In this document: piece by piece, positions 9,688 to 56,219 of the stretch
Numbering within the stretch: position 1 is the stretch's first letter
Layout: every line of letters begins with the position of its first letter
DNA from: Deltaproteobacteria bacterium
GTDB lineage: Bacteria > Myxococcota_A > Polyangia > JAAYKL01
Length of the DNA: 64,000 nucleotides
Direction: 5' to 3'
NCBI GenBank assembly: GCA_016935665.1
Contig: JAFGQN010000148.1
Span: 69,384 to 133,383 of the forward strand
The notes under the pieces: model-generated
What the model was told of the DNA's origin: nothing
What the model saw: the letters and a program-made list of their open reading frames with translations, nothing else
The model's database searches: none
Program-made: the position numbers and the translations under genes

Positions 9688-10158
9688 TCAATACAGAGAG
9701 CTGGCGGAAATGCCGCCGGCGGTTTGGGAAAGATACGGGGAGACGCCCACAAATCGAAAGGTGGGCACTCTTTTTTTCTGACGTTCACGTTCTTCGGCGA
9801 CGGCTTCCAGTTTGCGCGTGTTCACACCGTATCCGATTGCACCGATAGGAATCAGCGGCAGGCAGACAAAAGCAGCGCCTGCGGAATATGTCATCCAGTT
9901 TCCCTGCAGTAACACCGCGCCCAGAGTAAATCCGATTGCGCCCAGTACCGTACCGCTGATGCCAATGTCTCTGATGACCGAAAACACGCGCTGCTTTTTG
10001 GCCAGCTTTCGCTGCATATGATCGGCGAACGTAGTTGAGCTGTTGTCGTTTGTCAGATAGTCGTCGTACTCGGCGCTATCCTTGTGTTTTTCACGAATCA
10101 ATGATTTGAGGGGCTCTAGTGCGGGCATTGTGCCAACAGATTGCTGTTGTCGTAACAT
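9688..10158 (-). CDS. Small hypothetical membrane protein (two predicted TM helices)
   Basis: This ORF is the one with good length. It has Gly-zipper TM segments (ISGTVLGAIGFTLGAVLL; AAFVCLPLIPIGAIGYGV). An internal Met was chosen as start (MLRQQQ...); the start is uncertain and there is no recognisable family. Confidence 0.3.
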   Translation of the reverse strand: MLRQQQSVGTMPALEPLKSLIREKHKDSAEYDDYLTNDNSSTTFADHMQRKLAKKQRVFSVIRDIGISGTVLGAIGFTLGAVLLQGNWMTYSAGAAFVCLPLIPIGAIGYGVNTRKLEAVAEERERQKKRVPTFRFVGVSPYLSQTAGGISASSLY

Positions 10159-31020: not shown

Positions 31021-32133
31021 TTACGGGAGGTAGTCCTTTATTGCCTTGTACCAGGTGTCCGCCATCCATTTGTAGCCAGTGTCATTGGGATGAACCTGCA
31101 TGGCATCCATCTGATTGGTGGGGAATCCGGTGAAGTGATCGACAAGGAATACGTGCTTCCCATTGGCCGCTTTCGCATCAACTATTCCTGGAATGGCGGC
31201 GTTAAAGGTATCGACGTCGGATGCCCGCATGGGAAGCGGTATGATTTGAGCAACAAATATATATGCATCCGGCACGTTTGAAATGATGTCATCAATCAAT
31301 TTGTCCAATCGCTGCGGCGCACCATTGGGATTGCCGTTCATGTCATTGGTGCCAATATGCAGCAATACGATATGCGGTGGGTCATCCATTGCCGGGCTTG
31401 GAAGCAGCCCATTTATCTGTTCTATTGTCCATCCGCTGTGGCCCTGATGATTTCGAGGAAATGCCTTTCCGTTGTAATCACCACTTCGTCCGTCTGCCTC
31501 ACCACCCACAAATGTGATATTCCTGCTGTCATCAACTGCGAGGCAAAACAGCGGGTAGCGATACCCATCGTTTTGACTCGAACTCATACCAAATGTAATG
31601 GAATCACCAAATGGAAGGATTTTACAGGGCGCGCCATCGGTCGGGCAAGGTCCATCGGAATCGCCATCGGAATCGCCATCCGTGTCCCCATCGGAATCGC
31701 CATCCGTGTCCCCATCGGAGTCGCCGTCGCTGTCACTGTCGCCGTCCGACCCCATATCGCAGCACATGTCGCCCGCATCAGCACCTTCGCAAAGGCCATC
31801 CACCTCAACCGCGCCATTGTATCTCGAGCAGTCGGAGTGGCACTCATTGGGCGCCTCGCACGGTGCAATGTCGCTGTCCGAATCGCTATCGCTGTCCGAA
31901 TCGGAATCCCCATCCGAGTCGGAATCGCCGTCGGTGTCCGAATCACCATCGGTATCTGAATCGCCGTCGGTGTCGCCGTCGGAGTCGCTGTCGCCATCCG
32001 AATCGCCATCGCTGTCACTGTCGGAATCGGCATCGGTATCTGATGTCGATTCACTGCCCCCGCATGCCGTCATTTGTACTACAATCAATGACAAACAAAT
32101 TGCCAGTAGATACCGCATAAAAAACGTATTCAT
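31021..32133 (-). CDS. SGNH/GDSL hydrolase lipoprotein (possible rhamnogalacturonan/carbohydrate acetylesterase) with two poly-(Asp-Ser/Gly) tracts flanking a Cys-rich module
   Basis: The lipobox VVQMTACGG is followed by about 60 aa of DSDGDSD repeats, a Cys-rich module (CEAPNECHSDCSRYNGAVEVDGLCEGADAGDMCCD), a second DSDGD tract, and then SGNH blocks (FGDSITFG ... GTND ... VHPNDTGY). Confidence 0.6.
   Translation of the reverse strand: MNTFFMRYLLAICLSLIVVQMTACGGSESTSDTDADSDSDSDGDSDGDSDSDGDTDGDSDTDGDSDTDGDSDSDGDSDSDSDSDSDSDIAPCEAPNECHSDCSRYNGAVEVDGLCEGADAGDMCCDMGSDGDSDSDGDSDGDTDGDSDGDTDGDSDGDSDGPCPTDGAPCKILPFGDSITFGMSSSQNDGYRYPLFCLAVDDSRNITFVGGEADGRSGDYNGKAFPRNHQGHSGWTIEQINGLLPSPAMDDPPHIVLLHIGTNDMNGNPNGAPQRLDKLIDDIISNVPDAYIFVAQIIPLPMRASDVDTFNAAIPGIVDAKAANGKHVFLVDHFTGFPTNQMDAMQVHPNDTGYKWMADTWYKAIKDYLP
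31665..31730. repeat. 24-bp tandem DNA repeat (x2.3) inside the acidic-linker coding region of 31021..32133
   Basis: catcggaatcgccatccgtgtccc occurs identically at 31665-31688 and 31689-31712, followed by a partial third copy. Confidence 0.85.
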
Positions 32134-32662
32134 TCCATCCTCCCGTGTTTTTTTTACACTTGCCGTTGGATAACCGAAATCAAGTAAGAGAGCCCCTCCA
32201 AATTACAACCTGGCTCAAAATAATATTTTTAATTGCTCTGAATACAGCTGTTTTCCTCAAAAGAAACAAAACAGATAAAAATATGATTGAATCACGCATT
32301 TTGAAGGTTCGAGTCAGTATTTTCTACATTCCACTCATCTGCAGTTTCCAGTGTTCCCGCTCCCAAAAGCGCCTGGCGCCAATACCGCTCACCGGCTGGT
32401 CTGCGAGTTTACTGGGGTTCAGGTCTGTGCCTGTTTTAACGACGTCACCGCCATTTTCAATTTCACTTCGGGCGCGTCGTTGAGCAGCATCTCGCGAAAG
32501 AGCGGCACTTTGTACACATAGTCATTGCCTTCTCTACCCCCAACAAAGTCTCGGGGTATTTCGAACATGTTGAAATCATTAGTGTTTGAAAAATAATCCA
32601 GAAATTTTGCAACAAAATCTCAAAACGGCCGAATAGAGGGGGCTCAATTGGAGGGAGCTCAC

Positions 32663-33628
32663 ATGAGAATGATTCGCTGGCATAACAGAGATTTTGTTCA
32701 TTTTATAACCAACAGAACGCAGCACGAGATGTTCTTTTTGCTGCCTACGCCCAAAATCAACAGCCTCATACTGTTTTGGCTGACCAGGGCCAAACAGAAA
32801 AAGGGGCAGCATATTGAACTGTTTTCATTTGTGTTTATGGCCAACCATTATCACATGCTTTTACGTGACCCCATGGGGGAGCTGCCGGAATTCATCGGAT
32901 ATTTTCAGGGGAATCTCGCCAAAGCAGTAAATAAGGAAATTGGACGTCGCGGTACGTTTTGGAGTCGGGAATATGATGATGTGATTGTGGATGGCGAGGA
33001 AGCATTCATTAATCGGTTTCAGTATATCGCAGCCAATCCCGTAGTTGCCGGTCTGGTGGAGACGCCCGCGGATTGGGGCGGAGTCAGCTCCGTTCCCTTC
33101 GCTCTTTCGCAACGCCCTGTGGAGGGAAAGGGCTTGAATGTGACAGATTACGGGAACGCCACCCGTCATAACCGCGAAGCCAATGAAAAAGACTTTGAGG
33201 AGAGTTACGAATTTCTGCTATCTGCATTGCCAATGCTGGCTGAAAAATCCGACGCCGAGCTACAGGAATTCCTGCGTTCTGCAATTGACACAGCCCCTCA
33301 AAGCGTAAACAAACAACTGCCAGATGGCCCGCCCATGGGCATGAAGAAAATCATGATGCAGTCTCCACTCGATAGCCCCAGCGCACCAGCTGGCAGTCCG
33401 CGGTTCAAATTTTTAACGCATTGCAAAGAACGAAAAAAAGAACTGATTGGATTATATCGGGAATTTGTATCTCAATACCGAAAGTGTACACAGGTGCTGA
33501 TGGCGTATTTTTGTAAAGCACCTGCTGCATTTGCCAGTTCAATGAAAAAAATTACAGGGAAGGCGCCCATAATCATTTGGCCGCCGGGATGCTACGTGCC
33601 ATCGAGACATGAGCCAATTGCAGAGTAA
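32663..33628 (+). mobile_element. REP-associated tyrosine transposase (RAYT; IS200/IS605-like Y1 HUH transposase) with a long C-terminal extension
   Basis: A GGAGGG SD precedes MRMIRWHN.... The HUH motif (MANHYHML), GTFWSREYDDVIV and the RAYT signature YIAANPVVAGLVETPADWGGVSS (compare YIHLNPVRAGLVEHPEDYPWSS) are present. About 170 extra C-terminal residues have no match. Confidence 0.8.
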
Positions 33629-33834
33629 AGAGATTCAAAATTAAAAATTGAGTATTCAAGCTGGAGATTCCAGAGAGGTACAGATGCGTGCTTTTTCATG
33701 CGGATTGTCAATAGAGGAATATCTATCTGGAGAAAGATTGCCCCAAAACGCGTTGGCCAACAATTTAACCATGATAGCGCGCTCCCCCGATTGAAATACC
33801 GCGCCCATTTTTTTTTCAGGAAGACACAACACAG

Positions 33835-34006
33835 AAAATTCATAGCAATTTCAATACATTCGAAATAGCCCGCGAGTTTACTAGGGAAAATTCATAGCAA
33901 TTTCAATACATTCGAAATAGCCCGCGAGTTTACTAGGGAAAATTCATCGCAATTTCAATACATTCGAAATAGCCCGCGAGTTTACTAGGCCCGCGAGTTT
34001 ACTAGG
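33835..34006. repeat. 52-bp direct tandem repeat, 3 full copies plus a partial one
   Basis: The unit aaaattcatagcaatttcaatacattcgaaatagcccgcgagtttactaggg lies at 33835-33886, 33887-33938 and 33939-33989 (1-2 mismatches), then cccgcgagtttactagg again. Confidence 0.9.
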
Positions 34007-34016
34007 TTTTAGGACT

Positions 34017-34300
34017 AGGCACGCTACGTCTCAGATACAGTCCTGCCTGGCGGAGGAGACGTAGCATGCAACGTCTCAGATACAGTACTGCCTGGCGCAG
34101 GAGACGTTGCATGCAACGTCTCTACCAATGGGGGCGACGATGAATAGCGACTCAGTATATCGAACAAGTCCTGTTGCGTTCTGTCGTAGAGACGTAGCAT
34201 GCAACGTCTCAGATACAGTACTGCCCGGCGGAGGAGACGTAGCATGCAACGTCTTAGATACAGTCCTGCCCGGCGCAGGAGACGTAGCATGCTACGTCTC
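34017..34300. repeat. REP-like palindromic repeat array: 45-bp units (x4 plus partials), each carrying the hairpin GAGACGT-AGCATGCA-ACGTCTC
   Basis: Units lie at 34025-34069, 34070-34114, 34202-34246 and 34247-34291, interrupted by about 70 bp of unique sequence. The stems carry compensatory-looking variants (gtagcatgca / gttgcatgca / gtagcatgct). Confidence 0.85.
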
Positions 34301-34519
34301 TACAGATGAAACATCATGTGGGCAACGAATAAGATTCGCAGGCATGGGGTCACGCTTCAACGTAATCCGGGCGAGGATTGTTGCGCGGTTTTACCGCGGC
34401 AGTGCCGAGTATGTGCAATAAACTGTCCGGGCCGCCGGAAATCGAGCGTCGGGGGGCATCCGACCACTGCCCGGTAACAGTGCAATCTGATTTTTAAATA
34501 TGTCTATAGAGATAAACGG

Positions 34520-34845
34520 GCATCCGCCGGGCCTTGAAACCAACCGGAATATGCTGCTGGAGCAGGCAATGGGACCTTTGCTCCGCCTTTTGCATGCTGC
34601 TGGAGGAGAATCTGGACCCGTACATCAGCTGGAACATGCTCCTGGAGGGGGAATTGGGACCTTGAAATCAACCGGAACATGCGCCTGGAGGGAGAATTGG
34701 GACCTCGAAACCAACTGGGACATGCTCGGACAGGGGAAAAAAGTGGTTTGGCCTTTGGAGATATTCCTCCTGGAGCGTGTGATGAGGGCTCGAAGGGATC
34801 TGATTTATATCCCTGGAGGGGAAAAATTTGGTTTGGGGCTTTAAG
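34520..34845. repeat. Third family of degenerate tandem repeats of about 45 bp (core aaccggaacatgcNcctggagggagaattgggaccttg)
   Basis: At least four diverged copies between about 34536 and 34760. The ORF 34500..34844 is a translation artefact of these repeats. Confidence 0.5.
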
Positions 34846-34929
34846 AGGGCGGGCATGGGGGAGAGATTTGGATAAAGGAGAGATTTTGACATGTGTTTTG
34901 AGTGACGGGGGAAGCGCTTCAGAGGTGCA

Positions 34930-35709
34930 TCACACGGCTTGGGCGTTTTCGTCGTCACTGGAATCCGGGGTGTCGGATGCTTCCGGGGCGGCTGTTTTGG
35001 TGCGGGACTGTTTGGCCTCGGTGGTGCGCAGGGGCTGGAGGATGCGGGTGCGCATGTCCTTTGGGAAATTGTAATCCAGCTCCAGCAGGGCGGCAAGGGC
35101 GTTAACGGTGCGAATCCAGCGGTAGCGGGCCTGCTGCAGGTCTCTGGCGGTCACCCGAACTGCTGCGGATTCCTCCTGGAACTGTGCCCGTTTGCGTTCT
35201 GCCGCGCCCAGTTTACGGCCGGATTCCAGCCATTCGGTGAAGAGGTCGTACATGGTTTTGGCGCCAATGGAGACATCCTTGAGCAGGGCCTCAATCTCGG
35301 GGGTCAGCTTTTCCCTGGCCACTTCCACATTGGCGGACTCGGCCAGAAACGATCGCTGAACGCCCATCAACCCTTCGGGCATCAGCACATCGCGCGCTTC
35401 CAAAAGCTGGCTCTTCCTGGGTTCTTCGGACACCGCCGCCATGGCGGTAAACAGACCGTGCAGGGACCGGAATTTGTCATCGTGATCACCGTCGAGCGTC
35501 TGCGTCTGATCGGTCAGGGCCTTTAACTTCTCGCCGATATTGTCGCTGGCCACCATCATTCGCATCACCTCGTTGTGCGAATCGACGATGATGGGGACAA
35601 TGCCGGCGGTCACTGGACATCCTTCCAGCAGTGGCCGGTCCTGCGTGTCATCCGACCACGGTCCGGAAATGGCCAGCATGGTTGAGGCATCAAATGATTT
35701 GTAGGACAT
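34930..35709 (-). CDS. Hypothetical cytoplasmic protein (about 259 aa), helical, acidic C-terminus
   Basis: An AAGGAG SD precedes MSYKSFDASTML. It has no signal peptide and no recognisable family. Confidence 0.45.
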   Translation of the reverse strand: MSYKSFDASTMLAISGPWSDDTQDRPLLEGCPVTAGIVPIIVDSHNEVMRMMVASDNIGEKLKALTDQTQTLDGDHDDKFRSLHGLFTAMAAVSEEPRKSQLLEARDVLMPEGLMGVQRSFLAESANVEVAREKLTPEIEALLKDVSIGAKTMYDLFTEWLESGRKLGAAERKRAQFQEESAAVRVTARDLQQARYRWIRTVNALAALLELDYNFPKDMRTRILQPLRTTEAKQSRTKTAAPEASDTPDSSDDENAQAV

Positions 35710-35998
35710 TGCTTCTCCTTTCCCGCGCCCAAACGGCTCGCCCCCACCGAACATCGCTGCGGCGCAACTAAAGTAACAAAAAAGATTCTCGATAAATGAA
35801 CGATAAACGATTCGATGCGGTCGGCACAAGGAAAAAACATGGAAAACCTTAAAATTCTGATTTTACAGAAAATGACACCTGTGCGGATACTGAGAACGGT
35901 GAAACGCCAGACAGGGTGGGGAACAAACGGGTTTGATGATCCATTCCGGACGGATCTTCAGGACGATGCCGGTGTGTTTTTTAATATGGAACCGCTGG

Positions 35999-36373
35999 CT
36001 ACCTTGCCGCGATGCATTCGATTTCGACGAGGACATCGCGGGGCAGGCGACGGACTTCCACCGCGGCCCGGGCGGGTTTGTGTCCGTCGAACAGGCGGTC
36101 GTACACTTCGTTCATTTCGGAGAATGTATTCATGTCCTGCAAAAATACAGTGGTTTTCAGCACGTTTGATTTTGAAAATCCCGCCTCTTTGAGCACCGCA
36201 AATAAATTTTGCAATACCTGTGTGGTTTGCTCTTTAATCCCCCCCGGAACAACGGCCATCGTCTGGGGATGCAATGGTATCTGGCCGCTGCAAAACAGCA
36301 TATCGTTATGCAGTACGGCCTGCGAATAGGGGCCGATGGCTGCGGGAGCGTCCGTTGTATCGATGTATTTCAT
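35999..36373 (-). CDS. ridA: RidA/YjgF-family reactive-intermediate (enamine/imine) deaminase
   Basis: [20 protein letters not shown]...LFCSGQIP... and the C-terminus ...[25 protein letters not shown] are characteristic of the YjgF/chorismate-mutase-like fold. Confidence 0.75.
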
Positions 36374-36534
36374 TTTTTTATATCCTTGTTTGTTTCGATC
36401 ACGTTGAGCCGGTGTTTTGTTCATGGACCCGTTTCCACAATTCAATTTAATGCCATAACGCATTTTTGCAGTCGATAGATACGTTTTGATTGCAAAAATT
36501 ATGATTGGCGATCACCTGGCAATAATCGTTTTGT

Positions 36535-39474
36535 CTACCACACGGCCATCATGAGTGCATTCGGTGGAGAATCGCCTGCGAGGCTCAGAGTGATTTTGCC
36601 ATTTTCCGCAACACATTTTTCAAGGGATACCGATTGCAGTGAATTGGCGGCAATGCCTTTCAAATCGGCGATGCGTTGCTGACCGCATTGAACCTGGATG
36701 GCCGCCATGGGCTTCGGAAACTGAAAATGGAGTGTCGATGCTGTTTGTGTGCGCTGTTGCAAAATTGTTCCTTTTCGCAGGGAGACGCGTTTTTGCAGTT
36801 TGGCGATGTGCACATCCGTTTGTCTGGTTCTCATTGCGTCGATGGATTCCAATAAAGATAGTCCCTGGGGGATGGGGTTTTCCATCGCCATTTGGACAAC
36901 AAGCTCATTGATGACCTGGGAACCACCGATACTCGCCAATGCTTCGGCCAATTCCTCGCGCCGCGCTACAAAAGGTTCGCCTCTTAAGTATCTGGAGATG
37001 GGTTCGATGGCGGCACGGCATTTCAACCTGGCAAGCGCTGCCGCCGCGTCCTGACGCAACAGGTAATTGCCGAGCAGATCCATCAGCAGGGTCTCGGCCT
37101 CTTTTGCGTTGTTTGTTCCAAGCAGTTCAATGGCCTCCAGGCGTATGGCGGGGGCGGCTTTTTGAGCGGCAGCGATGTCCATGACATTCTGGATGGCGGT
37201 CTTGTCGTGCAATGACAAACGCGTGAGTTGCGCACGTGTCCAGGCCGCGCTCAAAGGATCCAACCCCGTGTCGGATTGGGACAACCCCCGCAGCTGCAAA
37301 AGCGTGTCTGCGGGTAATTGTGCGGCCATCGCCGACCACAGCCATCCGAGGCATACCGGATCGGAAACGCGGTCAAACGGAATGGGTGGAAGCCCACTGT
37401 GCCATCGCTCAAATATCAGTTCTGCCGCCTTGCGACGCACCACCTCCGGTGTGTCGTTGGACAAAAAGGGATACAATTCGGCGACAACGGATGTGTCGCC
37501 GCCCAGCGCCCGCTGAACGATTGGAGGCCAGCTTTGCAGACCGCCGTCCGCAGATACCGGGCGAAGCTCGGCTTTGGCATGGGATGCTTCCCATGTGACT
37601 ATTTTTTTCTTCAGGAGCTGTACCAATTGCGGGTGCTGATCGGCCACCGAGATGGTTTCCCCCGGATCGGCCCTGAGATCATACAGGCGAACAAGGCCTG
37701 AGGATTTGTCCCAAATCAATTTGTGGGAATCGAACAACACCATGCGTCTATCGTGCAGTTGAGAGAAAGCCGCCTTTTTCCGGGTGTCCGTTCCCATTAT
37801 CAGGCCGGACAGATTGTTGGACCGCACTCTGGGCGGCACTGGAATATCGACGATGGACAAAACCGTGCCCAGAATATCCACCAGATTTACCGGTTCCTTA
37901 ACAATATTATGGGGGACGCCGGGGACGTGAATCAGCAGTGGCACGCGCACCTGTTCATCGTAAAGTGTGGTGCCGTGGTATTTGCCGCCATGGTCGTTGA
38001 ATTCCTCACCGTGATCGGCGGCGACAACAATGATGGCGTCCGGATAATGGGTATCCGCGTAATCGAGCAACCGCTTGATGTGCTGGTCCGCCGTATGGAT
38101 TTCACAGTCGTAGCGTTGCTCATCGGAATTTCCAAAACGGGTGCATTCTTTTTTGTATGGTTCGTGGGGCTCAAACAGATGCACCCACACAAAAGGGGGG
38201 GCATCGTCGCCACTCACTTTTTCGAGAAACTCAATGGCCTGATTGATTTTCTGTTCTGCGGTAAACCGATATTCCATTTTCAAATAGCCAAAGCCGAACC
38301 CTTTTTTCTCCAGAGGTTTGAATTTGGTACGGTCGATAAAAAAGACGGACCGGGTAAAAAAGCCGCCGGTGCGATAGTGAAAGCGGCGCATAATTTCCGG
38401 CCACGTTTCCTGGTCGGCGGTGACATCCGGGATGTCGAACAGAGGTTTTATATATTTGCCGGTGATAAACGACGTTACGGCATATGACGTGTGGGGTAGC
38501 GCCGTATATGCACGTTTAAAAACGGTGGACTTCGATGCCAGCGCGTTGAGCGCCGGGGCGACAGCGGTGTCGGTGATATTTCCCGGCTCTATGCGGTCAT
38601 ATCGCATGGCATCCACGGTGATAAACAATACCGGAGCGCCAGGATGTTTCAGTTGTTTCTGCTCGGTGGCGTCTCCAACGGATGTCATCTCTTTTTCCGG
38701 CCGTAAATCGAGCAGCCTTTCATGTGGGGGAGGGACCAGTTTTTGCGAGAGGTGCACCACATCGGCGGCCGCAGCGGTTTTTTCCGTGATGACAAATCGA
38801 ATGTTCTGGGTGTTCCGTATCTGTTGCAGCGAGATGAGTCCACCCACTATAAATCCCACTGACAACGTGATGGCGCCGATGACAACGATAGAGGTGGCGG
38901 ACTTTTTCCAGACGAGCTGCCATGCAAAAGTGAACAGGAGCCATGAAAAAAACGTCAGCGCAATGTGAAAGGGGGCGTACAGGCGCACCAGCACAGTGAA
39001 ATCCGCAACCACCAGCAATAGACCTGTCACCGCACAACCCATCGCCAGCAATCGTTGTTTAAATATGCCGGAGATGGTGGCGCTCTTCGCGATAACGAGG
39101 CCGGTCACTGCAGCGGCAATCAGTCCCAATACAATGACAATGGCCTTCCGTCCAGGAATCGCTGACGCCTGAGGGCCTTCGGTCAGCAGCCACAGCAGTG
39201 TGACGAATACCGGCGAAAAGAGCAGGGCGGTGAACCACGGTTTGAATTTATGTCTTACACGGGAAATGCCGGCAGTGGCCGCAAATCCCGATACCGTGGC
39301 GAAAATGGCGCCCATCCCGCAAACCGCGGTGGACATATACAGCGCACGGAACATTTCGGAAGTGTCAAAAAACATATCGCGGGCGTTCAGGCACAGCGAG
39401 GCGCAGTCCAAAAGGCCCAGCAAGACGCCACTGACGCTTCCCGCCAGCAGCCATTGAATTAGTCTGTTTTTCAT
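36535..39474 (-). CDS. Polytopic membrane protein with an alkaline-phosphatase-superfamily (sulfatase/phosphoethanolamine-transferase-like) domain and C-terminal HEAT-like repeats
   Basis: About 8 N-terminal TM helices, then VLFITVDAMRYDR, HLFEPHEPY and VAADHGEEFNDHGGKYHG (metal/nucleophile-site blocks of the sulfatase fold). The C-terminal roughly 250 aa are helical repeats. Its start overlaps the recG stop by 4 bp. Confidence 0.65.
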   Translation of the reverse strand: MKNRLIQWLLAGSVSGVLLGLLDCASLCLNARDMFFDTSEMFRALYMSTAVCGMGAIFATVSGFAATAGISRVRHKFKPWFTALLFSPVFVTLLWLLTEGPQASAIPGRKAIVIVLGLIAAAVTGLVIAKSATISGIFKQRLLAMGCAVTGLLLVVADFTVLVRLYAPFHIALTFFSWLLFTFAWQLVWKKSATSIVVIGAITLSVGFIVGGLISLQQIRNTQNIRFVITEKTAAAADVVHLSQKLVPPPHERLLDLRPEKEMTSVGDATEQKQLKHPGAPVLFITVDAMRYDRIEPGNITDTAVAPALNALASKSTVFKRAYTALPHTSYAVTSFITGKYIKPLFDIPDVTADQETWPEIMRRFHYRTGGFFTRSVFFIDRTKFKPLEKKGFGFGYLKMEYRFTAEQKINQAIEFLEKVSGDDAPPFVWVHLFEPHEPYKKECTRFGNSDEQRYDCEIHTADQHIKRLLDYADTHYPDAIIVVAADHGEEFNDHGGKYHGTTLYDEQVRVPLLIHVPGVPHNIVKEPVNLVDILGTVLSIVDIPVPPRVRSNNLSGLIMGTDTRKKAAFSQLHDRRMVLFDSHKLIWDKSSGLVRLYDLRADPGETISVADQHPQLVQLLKKKIVTWEASHAKAELRPVSADGGLQSWPPIVQRALGGDTSVVAELYPFLSNDTPEVVRRKAAELIFERWHSGLPPIPFDRVSDPVCLGWLWSAMAAQLPADTLLQLRGLSQSDTGLDPLSAAWTRAQLTRLSLHDKTAIQNVMDIAAAQKAAPAIRLEAIELLGTNNAKEAETLLMDLLGNYLLRQDAAAALARLKCRAAIEPISRYLRGEPFVARREELAEALASIGGSQVINELVVQMAMENPIPQGLSLLESIDAMRTRQTDVHIAKLQKRVSLRKGTILQQRTQTASTLHFQFPKPMAAIQVQCGQQRIADLKGIAANSLQSVSLEKCVAENGKITLSLAGDSPPNALMMAVW

Positions 39475-55625: not shown

Positions 55626-56219
55626 ATGAGAAAAATGTCACACATTTCCTATTTCAGCGTGTTTGTGTTATCCTTGACACTTGCAATTTGCGTCACCATT
55701 TCTGGACAGGCGGATAGTGCACCTCCCAAAACGAAAACCGTTGCTGGGAAATCTCTGAAGCTTCTCGGCACCGCACTTCGGGAGTTTCTGTTTATAGATA
55801 TTTATAAACTGAGTGCTTACTCTGAAAGCGGTGATTGCAAACAAAGTTCAGTGATTTATAATTCGGAAATAAAGTTGTTGGTTTTGGCAATGAAGAAGAC
55901 CATTCCCAAAGAGCGCCTTGTCTCTACTTTAAAAGAGACGTTTATGGACAATCTGCCACAGGGAAAAGACAATTCGGAACTGAAGGGTAAGATTGAAACC
56001 TTTTTGTCGTATTTTAGCAACGATATTAAAAAAGGCAGTTATGTGGAAATTTTGTATCTTCCCGGGCGTGGCACGATGTTGAAGCAAAACGGCGCACAAC
56101 TGGGCCAGGTGACTAAAGGTAAAGGTTTTGCCGATCTTGTTTGGCGATCGTATTTTGGTCCCAACACATGTTGTCCTGGATTGAAATCTGACATTCTGAA
56201 AGAATGTAAATCAGAGTAA
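55626..56219 (+). CDS. Chalcone-isomerase-like (CHI-fold, fatty-acid-binding type) secreted protein
   Basis: A signal peptide, then LKLLGTALREFLFIDIYKLSAY, which matches the CHI-like signature (G-T-G-x-R-x-x-x-F-x-x-I-x-x-Y-x-x-A-L-Y). Confidence 0.55.
   Translation: MRKMSHISYFSVFVLSLTLAICVTISGQADSAPPKTKTVAGKSLKLLGTALREFLFIDIYKLSAYSESGDCKQSSVIYNSEIKLLVLAMKKTIPKERLVSTLKETFMDNLPQGKDNSELKGKIETFLSYFSNDIKKGSYVEILYLPGRGTMLKQNGAQLGQVTKGKGFADLVWRSYFGPNTCCPGLKSDILKECKSE

Follow-up and report, generated by a model that had tools for sequence, protein, structure and literature searches.

A tandem array of a widespread REP palindrome beside a Y1 gene that is probably not its partner

Palindromic repeats next to the gene of a Y1 HuH protein raise the question of whether the two belong together, as REPs and their RAYT, or have only come to lie side by side. 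We address this question for a 64-kb stretch of DNA from a deltaproteobacterial MAG (64,000 nucleotides, referred to here as the window), in which a repeat array spanning positions 34010-34303 occupies intergenic DNA with convergent genes on either side and adjoins a Y1 gene. The original prediction took array and gene together for a complete REP/RAYT system, likened the repeats to the paired REPs of BIMEs and implied that their consensus was new.

The array consists of five copies of the 22-nt palindrome GAGACGTWGCATGCWACGTCTC (P1-P5) and one degenerate copy (P0), and the predicted repeat units built on inverted repeats are therefore real. The full cores start at 34056 (P1), 34101 (P2), 34189 (P3), 34234 (P4) and 34279 (P5), and consecutive cores are joined by 23-nt linkers, giving the period of 45 reported by TRF. 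P0 is additionally supported by inverted-repeat matches, being 78% complementary to P4, with further 14-nt pairs at 93%. When the 64-kb window was searched with GAGACGTWGCATGCWACGTCTC at up to three mismatches, 10 strand-matches were obtained against 0 expected, all of them in the array, and no other copy was found elsewhere in the window. The four copies of the linker AGATACAGTMCTGCCYGGCGSAG lie on the same strand as direct repeats and vary at three sites (C/T/G, A/T/C, A/C/G and C/C/C), the last of which is the only one to alternate. The alternating flank types that had been proposed are thus not borne out, the supposed second type (A..C..C) being absent.

Cores and linkers fall into two clusters, P0-L1-P1-L2-P2 (cluster A) and P3-L3-P4-L4-P5 (cluster B), which are direct copies of each other, 90% identical at an offset of 178 nt. 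The interval between them, previously described as about 70 bp of unique sequence, measures 66 nt between the cores of P2 and P3 and 60 nt when counted between feet; this 60-nt segment may represent a repeat unit that has decayed. It shows a 32-nt complementarity to the Y1 gene, within the 5′ part of the latter, which was judged to be due to chance; about two matches of such quality are expected in 2.9 kb by our estimate. The trinucleotides GTA and TAC, which extend the palindrome to 28 nt, occur at cluster edges only, with TAC located 3′ of P2 and P5 and GTA 5′ of P3. As a result, P3 has only a GTAG foot, P2 and P5 have only a CTAC foot, P1 and P4 have none and no core has both, so that it is each three-core cluster, taken whole, that is double-footed. 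The array is therefore made up of two direct copies of a REPIN-like unit of roughly 118 nt, comprising three cores and two 23-nt linkers with feet at the outer ends only (Table 1). The classification of the units as REP-type palindromes is supported, and the feet at the cluster edges are of the GTAG/CTAC kind typical of RAYT-associated REPs. The ORF that had been set aside as spurious, MLRLLRRAGLYL... (MLRLLRR...), does exist at 34024-34290 on the minus strand, where it overlaps the array.

Table 1 Features of the repeat array and of the neighbouring Y1 gene (positions in the window; hairpin energies calculated as DNA).
Feature	Position	Strand	Evidence or remark
Left TIR of the Y1 gene	32538..32576	+	Inverted-repeat search; core TTTCGAACATGTTGAAAT conserved upstream of homologues
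Y1 HuH protein, 321 aa, NHYH ... FWSREYDD ... YIAANP, TIRYT type	32663..33628	+	Pfam, NCBIfam, BLASTP, alignment
Right TIR, three 52-nt tandem units and an extra 17-nt end copy	33834..34007	+	TRF, inverted repeats
P0, degenerate leftmost core	34010..34032		Right half gcacgcTACGTCTC recognisable, left half decayed
Linker L1 AGATACAGTCCTGCCTGGCGGAG	34033..34055	+	Linker search; no structure of its own (z = -0.03)
Core P1, A..A centre (A·A mismatch), footless	34056..34077		-6.2 kcal/mol, 7-bp stem
Linker L2 AGATACAGTACTGCCTGGCGCAG	34078..34100	+	Linker search
Core P2, T..A centre, perfect palindrome, 3′ foot CTAC; right end of cluster A	34101..34125		-8.9 kcal/mol
60-nt inter-cluster segment, unique in the window	34126..34185		Joined to the array by TRF at 68% matches
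Core P3, A..A centre, 5′ foot GTAG; left end of cluster B	34186..34210		Motif search, inverted repeats
Linker L3 AGATACAGTACTGCCCGGCGGAG	34211..34233	+	Linker search
Core P4, A..A centre, last base C>T, footless; weakest hairpin	34234..34255		-4.6 kcal/mol
Linker L4 AGATACAGTCCTGCCCGGCGCAG	34256..34278	+	Linker search
Core P5, A..T centre, perfect palindrome, 3′ foot CTAC; right end of cluster B	34279..34303		-8.3 kcal/mol

An independent assembly of run SRR13394437 in Logan matches the window exactly over 34196-38709, which confirms cluster B (34196-34303) base for base; cluster A, the 60-nt segment and the copy numbers over 33864-34195 are those of the MAG assembly alone. This Logan contig breaks inside P3, and another from the same run ends at 33863, in the first of the 52-nt repeats at the right terminal inverted repeat (TIR) of the Y1 gene, indicating that short-read assembly breaks at both arrays.

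The window has two further repeat-like sequences. The sequence at 55920-55941 (GTCTCTAC ... GAGACGT) is not a copy of the palindrome and represents a short chance hairpin inside an ORF of at least 150 aa (55626-56219). Between the REP array and a 259-aa ORF, positions 34520-34739 hold a separate array of four diverged tandem repeats of roughly 43 nt (61-80% identity; consensus ...GGGACCTTGAAAYCAACYGGAACATGC.CCTGGAGG...), with a period that is not a multiple of 3 and no match in Rfam.

All cores in the window are predicted to form stable stem-loops (-4.6 to -8.9 kcal/mol, z = -2.8 to -5.0), as compared with -11.3 kcal/mol for the canonical 28-mer. Only the T..A and A..T centres are self-complementary. 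P2 and P5, which have these centres, form 9-bp stems, whereas P1, P3 and P4, with their A·A mismatch, are left with stems of 6-7 bp (-4.6 to -6.3 kcal/mol). The proposal that the core variants preserve pairing consequently applies to P2 and P5, in which the changes are compensatory, but not to the A..A form of the majority, in which the two centre bases are unpaired. On a larger scale, cluster B (34186-34303) folds as a whole into one hairpin of 118 nt, with P3 paired to P5 and the feet at the base (-39.2 kcal/mol, z = -9.05), and the whole array region gives a folding z of -8.6 against shuffled sequence. A simple scan found no promoter-like or terminator-like site in the array or flanking it.

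The palindrome is a catalogued REP. Supplementary file 2 of Quentin et al. (2018, PMC6006769) contains exactly this 28-mer, GTAGAGACGTTGCATGCAACGTCTCTAC, as a REP of TnpA_Y1 subclass 2.4 under entry CyspE01 ACK69880.1; a literature search with the palindrome as text found nothing relevant, and the sequence occurs in that supplementary file. The implied novelty of the consensus is thereby withdrawn. The 22-nt core in the window is identical to the corresponding part of the published 28-mer, and the 25-nt copies at the cluster edges equal it minus one foot. Subclass 2.4, which is the RAYT group 4 of Bertels, is associated with ‘double foot’ REPs that have a 5′ GTAG and a 3′ CTAC, and is unique in having REPs inserted in frame within the tnpA_REP gene, between the HuH and Tyr motifs (PMC6006769). 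RAYT group 4 has been reported in 17 bacterial classes (Bertels et al. 2017, PMC5581495).

In a scan of one genome per species, GAGACGTWGCATGCWACGTCTC was found in at least 120 loci from about 11 phyla, with taxonomy taken from record titles. The hosts among the matches listed include Cyanobacteria, Bacteroidota, Chloroflexota, Desulfuromonadales, Fibrobacterota, Patescibacteria, Melainabacteria, Acidobacteriota, Actinomycetota (Rubrobacter and Thermoleophilia), Gammaproteobacteria, Ignavibacteria and Chlorobiota, and Gemmatimonadota. REPs are usually lineage-specific, which makes it notable that a 28-nt palindrome is kept letter for letter across about 11 phyla. Apart from GTA...TAC, the flanks of the listed genome copies are unrelated. 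The original prediction had held that a motif confined to this locus would be a local tandem duplication and not a dispersed REP family. The array is indeed the sole locus in the 64-kb window, and none was found in about 46 kb of related MAG loci, but the motif is dispersed in many other genomes and so is not a one-off.

Among the matches listed, both feet are present in 100 of 127 copies, and the centre reads T..A in 97 copies and A..T in 31, with no mixed copy among the 128. Independent variation of the two centre positions would predict about 47 mixed copies; this count ignores kinship, and the perfect covariation may alternatively reflect descent from two master copies. The A·A mismatch seen in three of the five window copies is thus found in none of the 128 listed elsewhere, and the asymmetric A..A form is rare, occurring at 32 loci in the whole JGI metagenome collection. 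Partial copies are enriched roughly threefold within 150 nt of full copies (0.93 versus 0.31 half-site hexamers per kb). The 45-nt composite junction had no match in the JGI metagenomes, and the 45-nt unit is therefore not demonstrably mobile. A scan of viral contigs found the palindrome in four contigs only, so that phages are not an obvious vehicle.

Two of the loci from the genome scan, L002 (position 480, a Geobacteraceae MAG) and L071 (position 1863, a Desulfuromonadaceae MAG), have similar palindrome flanks on both sides (...GATGGCTAAGCAAAAA.GCCAAA.G.AAGGCG...), which suggests that the copy is conserved at an orthologous site across species. In the metagenome Ga0272440 (loci L131, L135, L136, L138, L149, L151, L154, L157, L160 and L161), a palindrome with an A..A centre forms the middle of a larger repeat that is dispersed over about 8 of 11 palindrome-bearing contigs in both orientations (...GAAAATAACATGCTCATTTTT...GTCGTGTA[pal]TACAGTACAATTACCTCAAAACG...), resembling a MITE built around a REP.

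Genes for subclass-2.4 RAYTs accompany the palindrome elsewhere. Among the roughly 150 loci fetched, 12 stop-to-stop reading-frame segments in 11 palindrome-bearing loci match a subclass-2.4 RAYT, with the palindrome located inside the segment or flanking it. In L057, a 188-aa ORF (MPNHVHGI ... WQPRFYDH ... YIRNNP) has the palindrome upstream, inside, where it encodes VETLHATSL, and downstream. A REPtron in L143 (8677-10800) contains 14 palindrome copies at a period of about 126 nt around a subclass-2.4 RAYT ORF that starts near 10008; its centres are mixed, including T..A, A..T and hybrid forms. In L075 (2462-2730), an array with a 45-nt period, made of the 22-nt core and a 23-nt linker TGTTTRTCTGTTGTTGTTCCTTT, lies within a subclass-2.4 RAYT gene and is partly masked as N. 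Its internal cores are footless and end in ...CTT, the foot is found at the array end only and the hybrid centres include T..T. The L075 array and that of the window share the same architecture, with linkers unrelated in sequence. In the 64-kb window itself, tblastn detected no subclass-2.4 RAYT.

The Y1 protein beside the window array belongs to a different family. Its start on record is the ATG at 32663. It gives a weak match to Pfam Y1_Tnp and matches the NCBIfam RAYT equivalog REP_Tyr_transpos over its full length at 64 bits, below the cut-off of 80, and in a BLASTP comparison with the subclass-2.4 RAYT of L057 the HuH motif alone aligns. We found 42 database relatives, of which those named come mostly from Deltaproteobacteria MAGs; none is encoded in the palindrome loci among the 120 matches listed. 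In an alignment of 15 relatives, N-H-x-H, FW.RE(Y) and Y...N.V are invariant or nearly so and are followed by a conserved C-terminal domain. The ‘WQ’ residues that have been linked to GTAG recognition (Quentin et al. 2018, PMC6006769) read ‘WS’ at the corresponding position in this protein. Its motifs (NHYH and Y...NP) and length recall subclasses 2.1 and 2.3 of Quentin, for both of which ‘no REP’ is reported (PMC6006769).

The gene is instead bracketed by inverted repeats of its own, with arms of about 39 nt that are 77-81% complementary. The right arm lies within each of three perfect 52-nt units (33834-33989), with a last end copy at 33993-34007. Homologous arms were found in L122 (4520-4558 and 5902-5958), L125 (606-643 and 1949-1986) and L128 (353-379 and 1497-1523), and the left TIR core is also present in L127 (17-33). 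The sequence of this core is TTYCGAAnnnnYTGAAA, and in five family members it precedes the start codon by 85-113 nt. L122 additionally has an 18-nt tandem duplication at the end of its right TIR. Seven homologue loci (41-72% identity) were found to lack the palindrome, as well as REP-like hairpins in the vicinity of the gene. As judged by its sequence organization, the Y1 gene with its TIRs of about 39 nt is a TIRtron/TIRYT arrangement, and the relatives that share the TIR core look like a coherent TIRYT family in uncultured bacteria. The motif GGGGWSAS, which the TIRs of one TIRYT group have in common, was sought by eye on alignment A1 and showed no consistent fit, the G/C-run column not being conserved (GGGG in the window, TACCC or TCCCC in the others). 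Because this Y1 family is a different one with inverted repeats of its own, palindrome and adjacent gene are probably not one system.

Several further observations concern this gene and its surroundings. The right-end sequence GCGAGTTTACTGGGG has an additional direct copy upstream at 32403-32417, making five copies in the window against 0.17 expected. The related MAG GCA_016934495.1 encodes at least two paralogues of the window Y1 family (P0003 and P0005) and a second Y1 gene (L125, 3347-4342), which is subclass-2.1-like with a weak Bac_DnaA_C match and is located on the other strand at a distance of 1.6 kb from the gene for P0005. Upstream in the window, 31021-32133 on the minus strand encodes a GDSL lipase whose N-terminal half is composed of long D-S-D-G-D/T repeats, with several spurious overlapping ORFs on both strands. 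A possible synteny of this lipase with that in L122 was considered and rejected; the two lipases are not similar, and we therefore make no argument for vertical inheritance.

How, then, did the palindromes come to lie here? That the array is the REP set of the Y1 protein encoded beside it, which as cognate RAYT would recognize and multiply the GTAG-footed hairpins in a REPtron, is the reading that the location itself invites: the array begins 2-11 nt beyond the right TIR of the gene, and no other Y1 gene lies in the 64-kb window. The HuH and Tyr motifs of the protein are also intact, its match to the RAYT profile, though below the cut-off, covers the full length, and the action of TIRYTs on GTAG repeats was left open by Di Nocera et al. 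(2013, PMC3733652). We nevertheless regard this reading as unlikely. The palindromes lie on one side of the gene only, the TIRs that the Y1 family does conserve stand at a fixed distance from the gene, and the seven homologue loci contain no palindrome and, near the gene, no REP-like hairpin. Where a partner gene can be recognized elsewhere, it is a subclass-2.4 RAYT, which the Y1 protein resembles only at HuH; no relative of the Y1 protein appears in the 120 listed palindrome loci, and ‘WS’ replaces the GTAG-linked ‘WQ’. The complete REP/RAYT system of the original prediction is accordingly not supported. In a variant of the idea, a TIR-type Y1 enzyme, as distinct from a classical RAYT, would act on foreign GTAG palindromes, and the 52-nt and 45-nt stutter would be the footprint of cleavage and rejoining at hairpins. 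The right TIR is also tandemly amplified, so that one local process, possibly involving the Y1 enzyme, could have shaped both arrays. This proposal, which we hold to be distinctly unlikely, would provide the first link between a TIRYT and GTAG REPs, together with a sequence-level trace of REP cluster growth.

The array might also be what is left of the variable loop in a subclass-2.4 RAYT gene that has decayed, given that such genes have in-frame REP insertions between HuH and Tyr. A gene of this kind in L075 offers a parallel in its 45-nt array of the same core with a 23-nt linker; the period of 45 is divisible by 3, and cluster B translates as RDVACNVS..., in the frame used in RAYT genes. 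However, a profile of 11 RAYTs run against the six-frame translation of 33501-35000 matched the palindrome-encoded peptide only, with no HuH, WQ or Y...NNP remnant on either side, the two clusters are in different frames (P1 and P3 lie 133 nt apart) and the linkers are unrelated to those of L075, making this origin very improbable. A structured small-RNA gene or array, for instance one related to the Rfam family whalefall-1, appears more improbable again. The whalefall-1 consensus, AGAG-stem-CUC, does align to P2 and P5, but it scores 17.9 bits against a gathering score of 37 and covers 23 of 56 model positions (23-45), and no promoter-like or terminator-like site flanks the array. The Rfam search gave sub-threshold matches only, to whalefall-1 and to miRNA families, and the palindrome alone explains the former, which weighs against a small RNA. 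The hairpin of whalefall-1 (RF01762, loop CuUG) aligns with the double-foot REP at 34101-34123 and 34279-34301, and whalefall-1 may itself be a REP of the double-foot superfamily and not an sRNA. The local tandem duplication of a chance palindrome unrelated to any REP family would account for the single locus in the window and for the absence of the composite unit from the JGI metagenomes, but it is refuted by the identical 22-28-nt palindrome at 120 or more loci elsewhere and in the published REP, and can hardly be entertained. A CRISPR array was ruled out, the ‘spacers’ being near-identical.

The explanation that we consider likely is that the array is a locally amplified cluster of the known and widespread REP GTAGAGACGTWGCATGCWACGTCTCTAC, and that the adjoining Y1 gene is not its cognate. 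A REP or REP pair would have been brought in by a subclass-2.4 RAYT that acted in trans, either from another place in the genome or in an ancestor, and would then have multiplied by slippage or by unequal exchange between neighbouring palindromes, as the pattern of repeats in the DNA suggests. Exchange at the palindromic centre could combine the left part of a copy with an A..T centre and the right part of one with a T..A centre and so produce the hybrid A..A form, and unequal exchange would propagate core-linker units without feet, leaving footless internal copies. We infer local amplification from the tandem arrays of L143 and L075, the enrichment of partial copies and the rarity of the A..A form. 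A simple single-step tandem duplication did not reproduce the boundaries of the linkers. If the array acts at all, it would do so, as other REP clusters located between convergent genes suggest, in the form of hairpin or cruciform DNA, by extruding hairpins when single-stranded, or as a hairpin at the 3′ end of an RNA. The adjacency of the Y1 gene would then represent the juxtaposition of two hairpin-rich repeat systems, although a distance of 2-11 nt from the right TIR is striking for a coincidence and speaks against the locally amplified REP.

This assignment is of modest consequence: a deltaproteobacterial MAG joins the hosts of a REP family already catalogued, and a ‘REP plus RAYT’ pairing that looked attractive, but lacks support, is corrected. 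It also carries a caution, in that a Y1 gene beside GTAG palindromes is not automatically their transposase, and that subclass and flank conservation should be checked. For the REP/RAYT field, points of interest are the recurrence of arrays of a footless 22-nt core and a 23-nt linker in two unrelated contexts, a palindrome with a covarying centre in about 11 phyla and a small family of Y1 proteins of about 320 aa with a conserved TIR core.

The array and the neighbouring gene can be compared with several known systems. With the double-foot REPs of subclass 2.4 and RAYT group 4 (PMC6006769, PMC5581495), it shares the core, the hairpin with a 4-nt loop and the intergenic setting between convergent genes; in contrast to them, it has no subclass-2.4 RAYT nearby, its internal copies have lost both feet, its copies are crowded together at a 45-nt period and not dispersed, and three of the five contain the A·A mismatch. 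Like REPINs (Bertels and Rainey 2011, PMC3116915), each cluster has a REP at either boundary, and the two can pair into a long hairpin with feet at the base. Unlike REPINs, the clusters have a third core in the spacer, and only two copies, adjacent to each other, are present in the 64-kb window. The BIMEs of E. coli are regular REP arrays with short conserved linkers, and in this respect the window array is similar to them. In BIMEs, however, Y and Z REPs alternate and are joined by specific linkers, so that REP orientation and linker type alternate, whereas the cores in the window are self-symmetric and their four linkers are of one type. Since these linkers are all direct repeats and no orientation alternates, the analogy with BIMEs fails, and with it the proposed pairing of REPs. 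As to a REPtron, the window contains no RAYT of the matching subclass, its REPs are one-sided and the homologues of its Y1 gene are without REPs. The Y1 gene itself is closest to the TIRtron/TIRYT systems (Di Nocera et al. 2013, PMC3733652), in which the gene is likewise flanked by inverted repeats of about 39 nt and not by REPs, and with which it shares a long C-terminal extension and an occurrence in delta-proteobacteria. It differs from TIRYTs in that its C-terminal part has no Bac_DnaA_C/HTH match and its right TIR is triplicated. TIRYTs probably correspond to subclass 2.1, as suggested by Quentin et al. (2018, PMC6006769), and the length and NHYH motif of the neighbouring Y1 protein also recall subclass 2.3.
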